From NCBI GenBank assembly GCA_011525265.1, contig WTHV01000073.1, positions 1 through 35,609 of the forward strand: a DNA stretch of 35,609 bases. The letters are read 5' to 3'. Shown here piece after piece: positions 28,163 to 32,145 of the stretch. The notes beneath the pieces were generated by a model, which did not search any database, had not been told where the DNA came from, and saw nothing but the letters and a program-made list of their open reading frames with translations. Source of the stretch: Alphaproteobacteria bacterium (lineage in GTDB: Bacteria; Pseudomonadota; Alphaproteobacteria; Puniceispirillales; Puniceispirillaceae). Both the position numbers and the translations under genes were made by a program. Positions within the stretch are counted from its first letter, which is position 1, and every line of letters begins with the position of its first letter.

Positions 28163-31027
28163 TCATTGCAACCTGAAACGAGCTGATAATGAGAATTGGA
28201 AAAGCTCATCATCATAGAATTCCTTTTCCTCTTCATGCACAGAGCCATCAAGCGGTTCTGACCAATAGACATCAAAGGTTAACAGATTGAAAATAGACGG
28301 AATTTGCAGACCAACACCATAGCCAGACCAGTAATCTGCGCGGCTGCGGACTTTATATTGTGACTGCGCCATCATATGGTCAACAAAGAAATAAGGCTGT
28401 GCTGATGGCATGAAATCTGGCAAAGACACCTCTTCCCAATTTGCCAAATCTGTGCGCAATTCACCTGAGACAAAATACCCTTGATAGCCAGAGGATTCAC
28501 CAGGCTGATAGGCGCGCACTGATGAGGGGCCACCAACTGATAGAATTTCAGATGGCATATTGATCATATCTCTTGCATCAGAATAGAGAAATTTTGCCCG
28601 CCCATTAAGCGTCCATTTCTCTGATAGGAAATGAGAGGCATTGGCATCAATATCAAGTTTTTCCATCCATTTTTCGCGTTCAGGAATTTGCGTGACAATA
28701 TTCAACGCATGAATAGATGGCGCAACAGAAATAGCCGTTGTGCCATTATTAAAGCTGTATGGTATGGCGAGTGAATATTTGCGCACCTCAGATTTTGAGA
28801 GCATATCGCCCGTTACAGGCTGAACAAGGTCACTTTTACTCACCCCATAGGAGGCTGAGAGATAGAAAGAATAATCATCGCCAAAATAGACAGGCTGAGA
28901 GAATGTGGCGGCAAAAGAACTTGCTGAACCACGATAGCCGACCGTCTCTTCTGAGCCAGCAACAATTTTGGTATCAGAGTTTGATAGCGCAAGCGAAATA
29001 TTGCGCCCCTTATGGTCAAGCGGCATTGAAAAACTGCCTGACATAGAGGTTGAGCCTTTACTATCTGAGTAAGTGAAAGCTGTTTCATCATCTCTGCCAA
29101 TCAGATTATTTAAGGTAATAGACAAGGCATTTTGACGCCAATCAGATGTTTGGTTGGCATAATTATTTATCGAAACAGACGGTAATTCCACCTTATCAGG
29201 CTCTGCCACATCAACAAAAATATCTGTTTCACCAAAATCAGAACCTGGCGCTAATTCCGTCGCAAGCTTGCTTTTGTTTGATAAATTATAGGTGCGAATA
29301 GATTGCTCTAGCGCTTTGAGTGAGATGAAATCACCTTCTTTGGCGGCCAAATGCGCCAAGACAAATTCTTCTGAGAGATCATCGCGATTTTCAAGCGTAA
29401 TTTTTCCGACTGTTGCCTCGACAAGCTGAATTTGCACAACACCATCTGTGACAAGCTGTTCTGGCAATAAGGCGCGTGATAATTCGAACCCTTTGTCAAC
29501 ATAAAGCGCATTGACCCTATCCAAAATGCTCTTAATCGCCTCAAGCGTAATCGGCGTGCCAAGCACCTGTTTTCGTGCCGCACGCAATTCACTAGCTAGC
29601 AATATCGCACTTGGCGAGAAATCAATATCTGTGAATGTCTTTGGCGATGTTGCGGCAATATCAAAACCGGGGGTGAGAGAATAAGGCGGCAAATCAGGCT
29701 CAGATATGAGGGCAGGTGCCTCTGCGGCGGTTTTTTCCTCTTCTGATATGTCATCTTTTGTGGGCACATCATCAATAATAATAGCAGGCGCATCAGCTTT
29801 ATCTGCTTTATAATCAGCGACCAAATCATCTATCGCCTCTTTTATGACCTCTTTTGCATCAAGCGTATCTGCTATTTCTGGCGGGGTAGGGCGAATTTTT
29901 GGACGGGCAATAGAGACGATAATCTCATCTTTTGCCTCATCTTTATCTTGTGTGTTGATAGCCTGTTCAAGCGCGGTGACATCAAGCGTCTTATTGGCAT
30001 CATCTATGACGATATTTTCGACAACATCTGCATTTGCCACAACAGGGCGTTCACGAATAATTTGTGAAAGGCTTGCGCTTCTGGCTTGCCCTTTTTGACC
30101 ATCTTGTGATTGCGGCTCCACACGAACAGTGATTTGGGCACCAATATCTTTTGCACCAACTTCATAGCTTGGGCCATTCGCATTTGGTATGACAATATTA
30201 TCACGAAGCCAAATAAAGCGCGTATCACCCTCACTATCACCTTCATTATCATCGATAAATTGATATTGCGCTATCAGCGCTTCACCTGTTTGAGGCGTGC
30301 CGATAATGGCAAGATCTTCAATACGTGGCGGGTAATTTGCTTCCAAAATAGTGGCATTTACCTGAGCTGTACGACTATCTGCTATTTGCGCATCATTGCC
30401 TTCATAAACAAGCTGGGCTGAGAGTGATTTCCCCACATCTGCACGTTGCAAACGATAACGGCTTTTGCTTGCGCCCGTAATTGGCAAGCCATCGCGGTAC
30501 CATTGCAAACGCAACCTGCCACCTGCCTGCTGATAGGCTTGTTCATTCACCGCATAACGAGCAATCAACTCTGCATCTTCTTGGGCTGTGCCTAGAATTT
30601 CAAGAGCTGTAATAATGGTGCCTGTAGCGGGTGGGCGCAATGGCAAAAGGACTGTCATCTCAGGGGCATCAGCCATTTCAGACTTTGTTTTCACGCGCAC
30701 CGAAACCACAGTATCATCATCATTTGCGATGATAGAAATCTGTGTAACATCTATGCCTTGCGCCTTTAATTTAACAGCCAACGTCTCTGTAATATCTGCC
30801 AAATAAGATGACCGCACACAACCCGTCGAAAGCACATTTGATAAGGCACTCTGCTGTTCACTTGACCATGCGAAATTATGATGTATTTGAATATAGCGTG
30901 GCAGGATATCACAATCAGATGCCGCAAATGCCTGTGAAGGCGCCATGAATAACGGTGCAACCAGCATTGCCATGGCAAGTAGGGAGACCTGTATAAAAGC
31001 CAGCTTCCCTAGCCATTTTTGCCTCAT
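28163..31027 (-). CDS. TpsB-type outer-membrane transporter (ShlB/FhaC/HecB family) with long N-terminal extension, 954 aa
   Basis: The ORF is trimmed from TTG 31048 to ATG 31027. The signal peptide is MRQKWLGKLAFIQVSLLAMAMLVAPLFMAPSQAFA/AS. From about residue 465 it has a POTRA-like region (LEAIKSILDRVNALYVDKGFELSRALLPEQLVTDGVVQIQLVEATVGKITLEN) followed by a beta-barrel region. The barrel region includes SINNYANQTSD, NLIGRDDE and the L6-type motif GGPSSVRAYQPGE (VRGY-like). Confidence 0.85.
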   Translation of the reverse strand: MRQKWLGKLAFIQVSLLAMAMLVAPLFMAPSQAFAASDCDILPRYIQIHHNFAWSSEQQSALSNVLSTGCVRSSYLADITETLAVKLKAQGIDVTQISIIANDDDTVVSVRVKTKSEMADAPEMTVLLPLRPPATGTIITALEILGTAQEDAELIARYAVNEQAYQQAGGRLRLQWYRDGLPITGASKSRYRLQRADVGKSLSAQLVYEGNDAQIADSRTAQVNATILEANYPPRIEDLAIIGTPQTGEALIAQYQFIDDNEGDSEGDTRFIWLRDNIVIPNANGPSYEVGAKDIGAQITVRVEPQSQDGQKGQARSASLSQIIRERPVVANADVVENIVIDDANKTLDVTALEQAINTQDKDEAKDEIIVSIARPKIRPTPPEIADTLDAKEVIKEAIDDLVADYKADKADAPAIIIDDVPTKDDISEEEKTAAEAPALISEPDLPPYSLTPGFDIAATSPKTFTDIDFSPSAILLASELRAARKQVLGTPITLEAIKSILDRVNALYVDKGFELSRALLPEQLVTDGVVQIQLVEATVGKITLENRDDLSEEFVLAHLAAKEGDFISLKALEQSIRTYNLSNKSKLATELAPGSDFGETDIFVDVAEPDKVELPSVSINNYANQTSDWRQNALSITLNNLIGRDDETAFTYSDSKGSTSMSGSFSMPLDHKGRNISLALSNSDTKIVAGSEETVGYRGSASSFAATFSQPVYFGDDYSFYLSASYGVSKSDLVQPVTGDMLSKSEVRKYSLAIPYSFNNGTTAISVAPSIHALNIVTQIPEREKWMEKLDIDANASHFLSEKWTLNGRAKFLYSDARDMINMPSEILSVGGPSSVRAYQPGESSGYQGYFVSGELRTDLANWEEVSLPDFMPSAQPYFFVDHMMAQSQYKVRSRADYWSGYGVGLQIPSIFNLLTFDVYWSEPLDGSVHEEEKEFYDDELFQFSLSARFRLQ

Positions 31028-31269
31028 ATTTCTTAAAAAAAACAACAAATTAACCGTTTTCTTGGCAAGAAAATAAACCGCTAGAAATGCCCGTTAAGGT
31101 CAAAATACTAGACTATGATTAAGTTTATGCTAAAGTTTAGTCCAATTGGCAAGTTTCACCTTTTGAAATATATCAAAATTATGATGCAAAATCGCAAGAC
31201 TGATTGTGCTAATTGGATAGCGATAAAGCTAGAAATAGAGCCTATATTATTAGTTTAAGAGAGACTTTC

Positions 31270-32145
31270 ATGACGAACCGCTCTGACATGCACGATGCTG
31301 AGACAAGCCTTAACGCTGTGTACCAAGGCGCATCACACTGTCCCTCTTGCGGTGATTTAGGAGAATTTGATTTACCTGCTGAAAGCGGCACATTTCAAAT
31401 CGCTTGTTTTGCGTGTGAGCATATTTACGAAATTGACGCAACGCACGCCATTGCCTCATCAGATTCCTCATCAGATCCCTCATCAGATTCCGCAGCTGAA
31501 ACAGCGCCTGACACGACATCTGAAGAAGACACCCAGCCTCTTACTATCCGATGTCTTGATTGTGGTGGTGCTATTGAACTATCAGATAATTTGGATGATG
31601 ACGCTGATATTCAGTGCCCACATTGCATGAGTGATGATGACAATACAAAGTCAGATAGCGATGATGTAACGTCACGTTTCACCACGCCAGCACTTGATGA
31701 TTATAAATCCATCCGGACACGCAAGACAGGCATTGTCTTAGTGTCTATTTTGTCAGCTGGCCTTGTCATAGCGGCAGGCAGTTTGGCTCTTGGCCTCTAT
31801 TTCCTGACCCTTCGCACCGATTCAGATATCACCCGCTATATTGAGACCACCATTTTACAGCTTGCACCGGCAGAATTTACCGTTGAACAAGCCGCTTATG
31901 AGATTAGCGACACAGATTTAGGTACCTCATTGCTCGTGACTATTACGCTCAGTAATTCTGGTGATGTTGAAGGGGCACCAGCTGAAATGAAGGTTGTTTT
32001 AACAGACGCTGATAATAATCAGCTTGTCTCATGGCCGCTTGATACAGCAGGTCAAATTATTGCACCCGGACAATCAGCACAGCTTTATACACGGTTATTT
32101 GAGCCACCTGCTGATTTTACCAATTTGCAAGTCTTCGTGCGCTAA
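31270..32145 (+). CDS. double zinc-ribbon / single-TM / DUF3426-like membrane protein, 291 aa
   Basis: The track ORF starts at TTG 31213. ATG 31270 has AAGAGAG upstream and is preferred. There are two CxxC...CxxC ribbons (CPSCG...CFACE; CLDCGG...CPHC), an acidic Ser/Asp linker and one TM helix (GIVLVSILSAGLVIAAGSLALGLYFLTL). The C-terminal ~100 aa follow the usual zinc-finger + DUF3426 architecture. The family name is from memory. Confidence 0.7.
   Translation: MTNRSDMHDAETSLNAVYQGASHCPSCGDLGEFDLPAESGTFQIACFACEHIYEIDATHAIASSDSSSDPSSDSAAETAPDTTSEEDTQPLTIRCLDCGGAIELSDNLDDDADIQCPHCMSDDDNTKSDSDDVTSRFTTPALDDYKSIRTRKTGIVLVSILSAGLVIAAGSLALGLYFLTLRTDSDITRYIETTILQLAPAEFTVEQAAYEISDTDLGTSLLVTITLSNSGDVEGAPAEMKVVLTDADNNQLVSWPLDTAGQIIAPGQSAQLYTRLFEPPADFTNLQVFVR
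31456..31491 (+). repeat. 12-bp tandem repeat x3 (tcatcagattcc / tcatcagatccc / tcatcagattcc), in frame, encoding SSDS-SSDP-SSDS
   Basis: Read directly from the sequence. There is one mismatch in the middle unit. The repeat lies in the acidic linker of the zinc-ribbon protein. Confidence 0.9.

Follow-up and report, generated by a model that had tools for sequence, protein, structure and literature searches.

In a 35,609-nucleotide (nt) stretch of contig WTHV01000073.1 (assembly GCA_011525265.1; hereafter the window), from an alphaproteobacterium of the SAR116/Puniceispirillales lineage, we found a gene for an unusually built TpsB, the transporter component of two-partner secretion (TPS). The protein is 954 amino acids (aa) long and carries a conserved extension of about 430 residues ahead of the two POTRA domains and barrel that make up its C-terminal half. 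We propose, at roughly even odds (a probability of about 0.5), that it is the TpsB for a 6,564-aa exoprotein (TpsA) encoded nearby, and that the extension is a clade-specific periplasmic arm, added N-terminally, which would reach out and capture this substrate.

Domain organization of the transporter

The C-terminal half of the protein has the features of an ordinary transporter. A first-pass annotation, made from the DNA letters alone, had set the beginning of the POTRA and barrel part near residue 465 of 954, and profile searches bear this out: Pfam POTRA_2 (PF08479) matched residues 466–537 (E 3.2e-13, 49.8 bits against a cut-off of 24) and Pfam ShlB (PF03865) residues 599–908 (E 1.4e-13, 51.4 bits against 22.7). 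The second POTRA gave only a weak match to PF07244 (residues 539–578, E 0.048), with which the secondary structure predicted by AlphaFold2 (AF2) at residues 553–608 agrees. A Foldseek search with the full-length model recovered only BamA, FhaC and CdiB (E 1e-13 to 1e-16), the matches to FhaC and CdiB lying at about 1e-13 to 1e-14. The L6 motif reads V-R-A-Y at residues 837–840, the Gly position of the canonical (V/I)RG(Y/F) being Ala in this protein, and V837, R838, A839 and Y840 are invariant in 24 relatives. On the strength of the barrel, POTRA1 and POTRA2, the L6 motif and the gene order, we conclude from the sequence that the protein is a TpsB of the FhaC/ShlB family (type Vb), with secretion of the TpsA as its predicted function. 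The same genome also encodes a second, ordinary TpsB of 579 aa (contig C116, L002:832-2571, plus strand), and no giant gene lies beside it within the 4 kb fetched.

Translation from the ATG at position 31027 yields the 954-aa protein (open reading frame (ORF) 28163..31027, minus strand). Read directly, its first 35 residues form a Sec-type leader with a basic n-region, a hydrophobic core and A-F-A ahead of A-S-D-C, and cleavage is expected after A-F-A. This is the only signal peptide of the protein, and the alignment places a hydrophobic leader before the first Cys in all relatives.

Two Ig-like (immunoglobulin-like) repeats of about 90 aa, noticed in the first-pass annotation, are well supported. 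They align with each other at 29% identity in BLASTP (E 4e-12) and, when profiles built from 91 relatives are compared by hhalign, with E 7e-23 and 99.5% probability. AF2, run with a 24-sequence alignment, modelled both as all-beta, with a confidence score (pLDDT) of about 85. Ig2 passes the IG_AIR9 threshold (PF23197; residues 236–318, E 7.5e-9, 35.8 bits against a cut-off of 27.5) and also matches NCBIfam ZirU_fam below its cut-off (E 1.5e-9). For Ig1, Pfam reported a weak SCAB-Ig match, and when the sequence of the extension was compared with PDB chains, the SCAB1 Ig domain (4dix, E 0.12) was the sole, marginal match. The Ig pair is universal across the 91 relatives, and the A-N-Y-P-P junction ahead of Ig2 is invariant. 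A search of residues 36–365 against 1.8 billion representative proteins returned 8,389 matches, nearly all of them proteins of 1,000–6,000 aa with up to 24 tandem Ig copies; the repeat is therefore an A9-type Ig module that giant proteins commonly carry. We looked for the same Ig domain in the giant TpsA, and it is not there.

The segment that precedes the Ig pair had been described as a POTRA-like alpha/beta segment with two Cys, and its assignment as a POTRA is probable though unproven. Folded alone by AF2 it reached a pLDDT of 88 and a predicted template-modelling score (pTM) of 0.79 (about 80 as part of the full-length model), and its elements follow the order beta-alpha-alpha-beta-beta plus one further strand, which is the POTRA order. 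In hhalign the module matched the protein's own POTRA1 with P 0.003 over 60 collinear columns, while the comparison of POTRA1 with POTRA2 was poorer (P 0.1). Pfam POTRA_2 was the top match in 3 of 8 orthologous modules, below threshold in each (best E 1.2e-4, 22.3 bits against 24), and the Foldseek list for the module holds many weak POTRA matches (BamA, TamA and Toc75, E 0.2–1.2). In the search of representative proteins, which was swamped by giant Ig-repeat proteins, the module was found only in its own family. It is present in nearly all of the 91 relatives and shortened in one sub-lineage. C39 and C70, conserved in 90 and 85 of the 91 relatives, respectively, are the only Cys residues of the mature protein, and the pair fits a disulfide formed outside the cytoplasm. 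Taken with the AF2 model, these comparisons make the module a probable third, divergent ShlB-type POTRA ('POTRA0').

Between the Ig pair and POTRA1 runs a charged linker, again as first described. Its 128 residues (323–450) include 32 Asp/Glu, 14 Lys/Arg, 11 Pro and 19 Ala, and AF2 assigned them a pLDDT below 50. Across the 91 relatives the linker is 13% Ala, 12% Pro, 12% Glu and 11% Asp, and 21 to 216 aa (median 112) lie between Ig2 and the pre-POTRA motif. Near its start AF2 drew helices at residues 333–345 and 350–363, with pLDDT below 55. This helix-prone segment, possibly a plug helix like H1 of FhaC, is kept only in nearer relatives and is absent from the short-linker members of the clade. 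Further on stand the short conserved motifs P-x-x-R-P and A-P-A-I-I-I. An alignment of 24 relatives shows no variation at P414, A415, I417 and I418 or in the L-T-x-G-F motif; some relatives have a second copy of the motif, and A-P-A-I-I-I is missing in deeper members of the clade. AF2 placed short strands at residues 449–459 with low confidence. The positions first given for these features were off by no more than about 10 nt. One lineage has a linker built of tandem copies of a Pro/Glu-rich unit of about 20 residues (L014:6866-8720, plus strand).

Conservation and distribution of the extension

An extension that is dispensable and not conserved had been named in the first-pass annotation as grounds for abandoning the claim. 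We found that the extension is conserved, integral to the protein and under purifying selection. The whole extension is matched at 43–99% identity by 33 protein clusters of 914–958 aa. When only the POTRA and barrel part was used as the query, all relatives with a barrel identity between 43% and 100% were 844–1,001 aa long and carried PF23197, and the next relatives, at 30% identity, were ordinary TpsBs of 555 aa, for example from Variovorax. Carriers of the extension belong to SAR116/Puniceispirillales and to Parvibaculales (one Parvibaculales metagenome-assembled genome (MAG) among the barrel relatives). Of the 96 genomes of the family in our collection, 24 match; they represent 6 of 13 genera and comprise every one of the 7 genomes from the genus. 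Pairwise ratios of non-synonymous to synonymous substitution (dN/dS), which are crude since dS is saturated and exceeds 1, were 0.09–0.16 for the barrel, 0.12–0.21 for the POTRAs, 0.15–0.29 for the Ig domains and 0.2–0.45 for the N-terminal module and linker.

Five clusters of 553–687 aa seemed to lack the arm, and we inspected two of the five as candidates for a natural arm-less form. Neither qualified. In one, a run of N in the scaffold falls in the linker and the coding sequence of the arm is intact upstream; in the other, the frame breaks inside the tandem Pro/Glu linker repeat. The latter, in a long-read assembly, splits the gene into a 350-aa ORF with the Ig pair and a 687-aa TpsB, and reflects either a sequencing error or slippage. 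Two entries, P0255 and P0263, were set aside as error-laden sequences.

A three-gene cassette

The transporter gene is followed by a 95-nt gap, a gene for a 108-aa protein, a 35-nt gap and the 6,564-aa gene. Residues 36–229 of the giant protein matched the Pfam TPS domain (PF05860) with E 1.4e-7 and 32.2 bits, 1.3 under the cut-off of 33.5, and an N-P-H-G turn motif is visible in its N-terminus; no other Pfam domain was found in it. Giant TpsA orthologues of 5,455–6,717 aa are present in all related loci, so that in this clade a long N-terminus of the TpsB goes together with a giant TpsA, a co-occurrence that the first-pass annotation had proposed to check. The cassette is the constant setting of the gene in this clade and consists of a long tpsB, a gene for a membrane-anchored two-Cys protein of 96–116 aa and the giant tpsA. 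The same three genes stand together in TARA metagenome contigs, on a 2-Mb contig (867, 106 and 6,075 aa) and in the Parvibaculales MAG (844, 96 and 6,692 aa), where the flanks are unrelated; SAR116 and Parvibaculales cassette loci differ in their flanking genes. That the three genes recur together in such loci supports a machine of several parts.

The 108-aa protein combines a single membrane helix at its N-terminus with a highly conserved domain in which two Cys are invariant. Its gene was found in 18 of the 96 genomes of the family, always with a long tpsB about 100 nt upstream. It turned up in none of the 76 genomes of the family in which a full tpsB is missing, and a sample of 401 genomes from the class yielded 2 with it. 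From this arrangement we regard the protein as a candidate inner-membrane partner of the arm. A divergently transcribed gene for a protein with N-terminal zinc ribbons also accompanies the cassette, and the C-terminal domain of its product is conserved even at the Parvibaculales locus; a Pfam search up to E 0.001 gave nothing for this protein. The coordinates of all features are collected in Table 1.

Table 1. Features of the long-armed TpsB, the genes around it and related proteins without a barrel; positions refer to the window unless a locus is named.
Feature	Residues or length	Position	Strand	Basis
TpsB ORF	961 codons open from TTG	28163..31048	-	
TpsB signal peptide	1-35	30923..31027	-	from ATG at 31027
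Two-Cys alpha/beta module ('POTRA0', probable)	36-135	30623..30922	-	AF2, hhalign, Pfam in orthologues
Ig-like domain 1, A9/IG_AIR9 type	136-228	30344..30622	-	AF2, hhalign
Ig-like domain 2, A9/IG_AIR9 type	229-322	30062..30343	-	Pfam PF23197, AF2
Helix-prone segment	323-365	29933..30061	-	AF2, alignments
Acidic Ala/Pro-rich variable linker	366-445	29693..29932	-	pLDDT below 50
Pre-POTRA strand motif L-T-P-G-F-x-I-A	446-465	29633..29692	-	alignments; clade-wide
POTRA1 and POTRA2	466-612	29192..29632	-	Pfam POTRA_2, AF2 secondary structure
16-stranded Omp85/ShlB-type barrel	613-954 (stop codon included)	28163..29191	-	Pfam ShlB, Foldseek
Small gene between tpsB and tpsA	108 aa	27741..28067	-	alignment, 47-92% identity
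Giant TpsA	6,564 aa	8011..27705	-	signal peptide and probable, divergent TPS domain
Divergent zinc-ribbon/membrane-helix/C-terminal-domain (~110 aa) protein		31213..32145	+	alignment, 20-55% identity
Barrel-less arm proteins		L011:4002-5510 (+); L010:4872-6404 (+); G013:C15:27361-28287; G005:C43:6181-7059		

Proteins of about 500 aa encoded in four genomes of a sister genus begin with a signal peptide, continue through the two-Cys module, the pair of Ig domains, the linker and a POTRA1-like domain, and end in a short hydrophobic tail in place of the barrel. Their genes do not adjoin a giant gene, and their genomes are without the 108-aa gene. They could be conserved remnants, or else 'arm + POTRA' proteins that are free of any pore.

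Proposed function and location of the arm

A substrate of 6,564 aa that crosses the periplasm unfolded makes reach and capture the most economical function for such an arm. From its tip inwards the arm would comprise a disulfide-stabilized POTRA-like domain, the Ig pair as rigid spacers or binding platforms, the helix-prone segment and a variable acidic Ala/Pro-rich tether that leads to POTRA1, POTRA2 and the barrel. So built, it could extend deep into the periplasm, where the distal POTRA-like domain and the Ig pair may take hold of TpsA near the inner membrane, by its TPS domain as this emerges or by its unfolded repeats, possibly while docked on the small two-Cys protein of the cassette, itself anchored in the membrane. 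The captured chain would then be passed on to POTRA1 and POTRA2 and into the pore, and the very long unfolded polypeptide would be less exposed to the periplasm. The hydrophobic strand motifs of the linker could in addition serve as a pseudo-substrate on POTRA1 and POTRA2, as the FhaC linker does. The arm is modular and probably dispensable for folding of the barrel.

We consider a periplasmic location of the arm likely, because its tip is POTRA-like and the characterized POTRA domains of Omp85 proteins are all periplasmic (PMC4104836, PMC5422565). In FhaC, a pore helix of about 20 residues and a linker of 30 residues lead from the cell surface to POTRA1 (PMC5422565). By this geometry, the 21–40 residues that separate Ig2 from the pre-POTRA motif in the shortest members of the clade are too few for an arm at the surface. 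The N-terminal domain of PlpD, long believed to be secreted, was shown to remain periplasmic (PMC11116518); by analogy, PlpD, as the one Omp85 protein with a large extra N-terminal domain that has been tested for topology, favours a periplasmic arm. In addition, the barrel-less versions in four genomes mean that the arm has been kept as an ORF without a pore. The first-pass annotation had suggested an extra periplasmic or surface module that might dock the substrate or bind peptidoglycan; among the roles that we can infer, docking of the substrate in the periplasm is better supported than display at the surface or binding of peptidoglycan.

Several observations weigh against this reading. The argument from arm length presumes that the geometry of FhaC holds for this TpsB, and AF2 did not confidently place residues 334–459. 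The N-terminus of FhaC itself lies at the cell surface since H1 crosses the pore (PMC5422565), and A9-type repeats occur mostly in long tandem arrays of giant, presumably extracellular proteins, which hints at a surface role. As to the tip, the two-Cys module of the window's own protein has no POTRA match in Pfam, and a Foldseek search with it against PDB gave nothing significant, the best match being a Nudix protein (E 0.03). The link between the arm and the small protein rests on conserved gene order among related, non-independent genomes, and the counts of small gene and tpsB, which come from kin genomes, reflect linkage and not independent co-evolution.

The main rival of a periplasmic arm is a stalk displayed at the surface, in which the helix at residues 333–363 would occupy the barrel pore as H1 does in FhaC, and the POTRA-like module and Ig pair would stand outside the cell, holding or organizing TpsA or binding a target. 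The surface position of the FhaC N-terminus and the company that A9-type repeats keep both speak for such a stalk, as do the two AF2 helices and the likeness of Ig2 to an Ig domain of the secreted ZirU, although that match is below its cut-off. We nevertheless judge it unlikely. The helical segment is modelled with low confidence and is absent from the very members in which only 21–40 residues join Ig2 to the pre-POTRA motif; the POTRA-like fold has no known extracellular example; and the invariant Cys pair, if bonded in the periplasm, would impede passage through the pore of a TpsB. The periplasmic N-terminal domain of PlpD (PMC11116518) and the existence of arms without a barrel point the same way. 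We are equally sceptical of an autoinhibitory gate as the main function of the extension. Here A-P-A-I-I-I and L-T-P-G-F-x-I-A would fill the groove of POTRA1 and POTRA2 by beta-augmentation, as the FhaC linker does, and the globular domains would tune the gate or sense a signal. Such a gate would explain the invariance of P414, A415, I417, I418 and L-T-x-G-F among 24 relatives, the duplicated motif in some of them and the clade-wide conservation of the pre-POTRA motif. It accords poorly with the loss of A-P-A-I-I-I in deeper members and with an Ig pair that is universal and more constrained than the linker, and about 290 residues of folded domains would be superfluous for gating. The idea is, however, compatible with the arm model and does not exclude it.

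Some Omp85 proteins have Pro-rich N-terminal regions that, like the Pro/Glu-rich segment of TonB, are periplasmic spacers. The linker of this TpsB is likewise rich in Pro, Glu, Asp and Ala, and in one lineage has become a tandem Pro/Glu repeat, so that the arm might serve to bind peptidoglycan or another component of the envelope and thereby set the position of the transporter or its distance from the wall, without contact with the substrate. This seems improbable to us, as no peptidoglycan-binding family (LysM, OmpA_C, SPOR or PG_binding) matched at E up to 1 and the arm, barrel-less versions excepted, is found only in the giant-TpsA cassette. The last explanation to be weighed is an annotation artefact, with the true start downstream, an ordinary TpsB of about 500–550 aa as the product and the upstream part untranslated or a separate gene. 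No Shine–Dalgarno sequence is visible ahead of the ATG at 31027, and some metagenome assemblies contain gene calls of 553–687 aa. However, residues 360–470, read directly, contain neither a Met nor a hydrophobic or signal-like leader, and a product starting near the POTRA region, around residue 465, could therefore not be exported. Moreover, the short calls that we inspected trace to the N run and to the frame break described above, with Ig-coding sequence intact upstream in both, and an open frame and conservation at the protein level persist through dS above 1. We find an artefact hardly credible.

Comparison with known transporters

Like FhaC, ShlB and CdiB, the TpsB of the window has a ShlB-type 16-stranded barrel, an L6 motif of the V-R-x-Y form, two ShlB-type POTRAs, a linker before POTRA1 and a gene upstream of that for an exoprotein, in this case one with a probable, divergent TPS domain. 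The clade differs from them in some 430 additional N-terminal residues, which form the POTRA-like two-Cys module, the two A9 Ig domains and the long acidic linker. It also has no H1 plug helix that is conserved clade-wide, has the extra gene for a small membrane protein and would serve a substrate of 5,500–6,700 aa.

PlpD (type Vd) shares with this protein a barrel of the Omp85 superfamily and an extra folded domain N-terminal to the POTRA region, which in PlpD is periplasmic (PMC11116518). PlpD, however, has a single POTRA, an Omp85-type barrel (PF01103), a lipase domain and no partner exoprotein, whereas the window's TpsB has two POTRAs, a ShlB-type barrel, non-enzymatic modules of Ig and POTRA-like type and a TpsA encoded next to it. 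We considered whether the protein could be a PlpD-like passenger-transporter; the two POTRAs, the ShlB barrel, the adjacent TpsA and the absence of an enzyme domain rule this out. BamA, with five POTRAs, and TamA, with three, resemble the proposed arm in that their periplasmic POTRA arm is longer than that of TpsBs. TamA, moreover, pairs with TamB, which is anchored in the inner membrane, to bridge the periplasm, a likeness to the proposed pairing of the arm with the small protein. In both, however, the POTRAs are contiguous, with neither Ig domains nor a flexible linker between them, and their task is the insertion of membrane proteins and not secretion; neither is related in sequence to this TpsB beyond the superfamily.

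The Ig domains have relatives in quite different settings. Ig2 resembles the A9 domain of AIR9, above the IG_AIR9 threshold, and the Ig domain of ZirU, below threshold, while Ig1 is weakly similar to the Ig domain of SCAB1 (4dix). AIR9 and SCAB1 are eukaryotic cytoskeletal proteins and ZirU is a secreted protein of Salmonella; none of the three is part of an Omp85 transporter.

TpsBs have been described as consisting of a helix, a linker, two POTRAs and a barrel, both in a census of Omp85 and TpsB architectures from 2014 (PMC4104836) and in a review of TPS from 2017 (PMC5422565), and fusions to WD40, patatin or metalloprotease domains are listed there only for Omp85-type barrels (PMC4104836, PMC5422565). 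In the literature we found no description of an N-terminally extended TpsB, of one with three POTRAs or Ig-like modules, or of two-partner secretion in SAR116. The first-pass annotation had taken it as established that TpsBs carry only a short helix and linker before their POTRAs, which is true of those that have been studied (PMC5422565) but not of all those in genomes. In a sample of 401 genomes of Pseudomonadota most ShlB frames are 540–650 aa long, and a minority are genuinely longer. Several very long stop-to-stop ShlB frames in this sample (among them 1,225 and 812 aa) were discarded as high-GC artefacts in which the first Met lies far inside.

Among the longer proteins, a 747-aa TpsB of Magnetococcus marinus MC-1 (L020:596-2944, plus strand) has the domains Big_9, POTRA_2 and ShlB, and a related TpsB of 750 aa (L021:872-3121, plus strand) has a Big_9/Cadherin-like Ig domain before POTRA_2. 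These proteins share with the window's TpsB an N-terminal extension (about 230–290 aa) that includes an Ig-like domain, but they have a single one, of Big_9/Cadherin-like and not A9 type, and Pfam reports no additional POTRA-like module in them. No homology was detectable between these extensions and the arm of the window. That extensions unrelated in sequence to this arm also bear Ig domains indicates that Ig-bearing TpsBs arose more than once. A third protein, of 1,177 aa (L018:371-3901, minus strand), has about 690 residues before POTRA_2, to which no domain was assigned and which are likewise unrelated in sequence to the arm.

Implications

Two-partner secretion is regarded as the simplest of secretion routes, with one pore and one substrate, and a standing question is how substrates of such length, still unfolded, avoid aggregation or degradation on their way through the periplasm. 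The TpsB clade described here, found in abundant marine Alphaproteobacteria, offers a natural system in which to ask whether TpsBs reach across the periplasm for their substrate, and the independent Ig fusions in other lineages suggest that this may be a general, overlooked solution. As a more tentative idea, which we think possible but doubtful, the long-armed TpsB and the small two-Cys protein, perhaps together with the zinc-ribbon protein, could form an envelope-spanning relay that physically couples Sec export at the inner membrane to the translocation of a protein of more than 6,000 residues across the outer membrane. If so, 'two-partner' secretion in these bacteria would be the work of a multi-component, trans-periplasmic machine.

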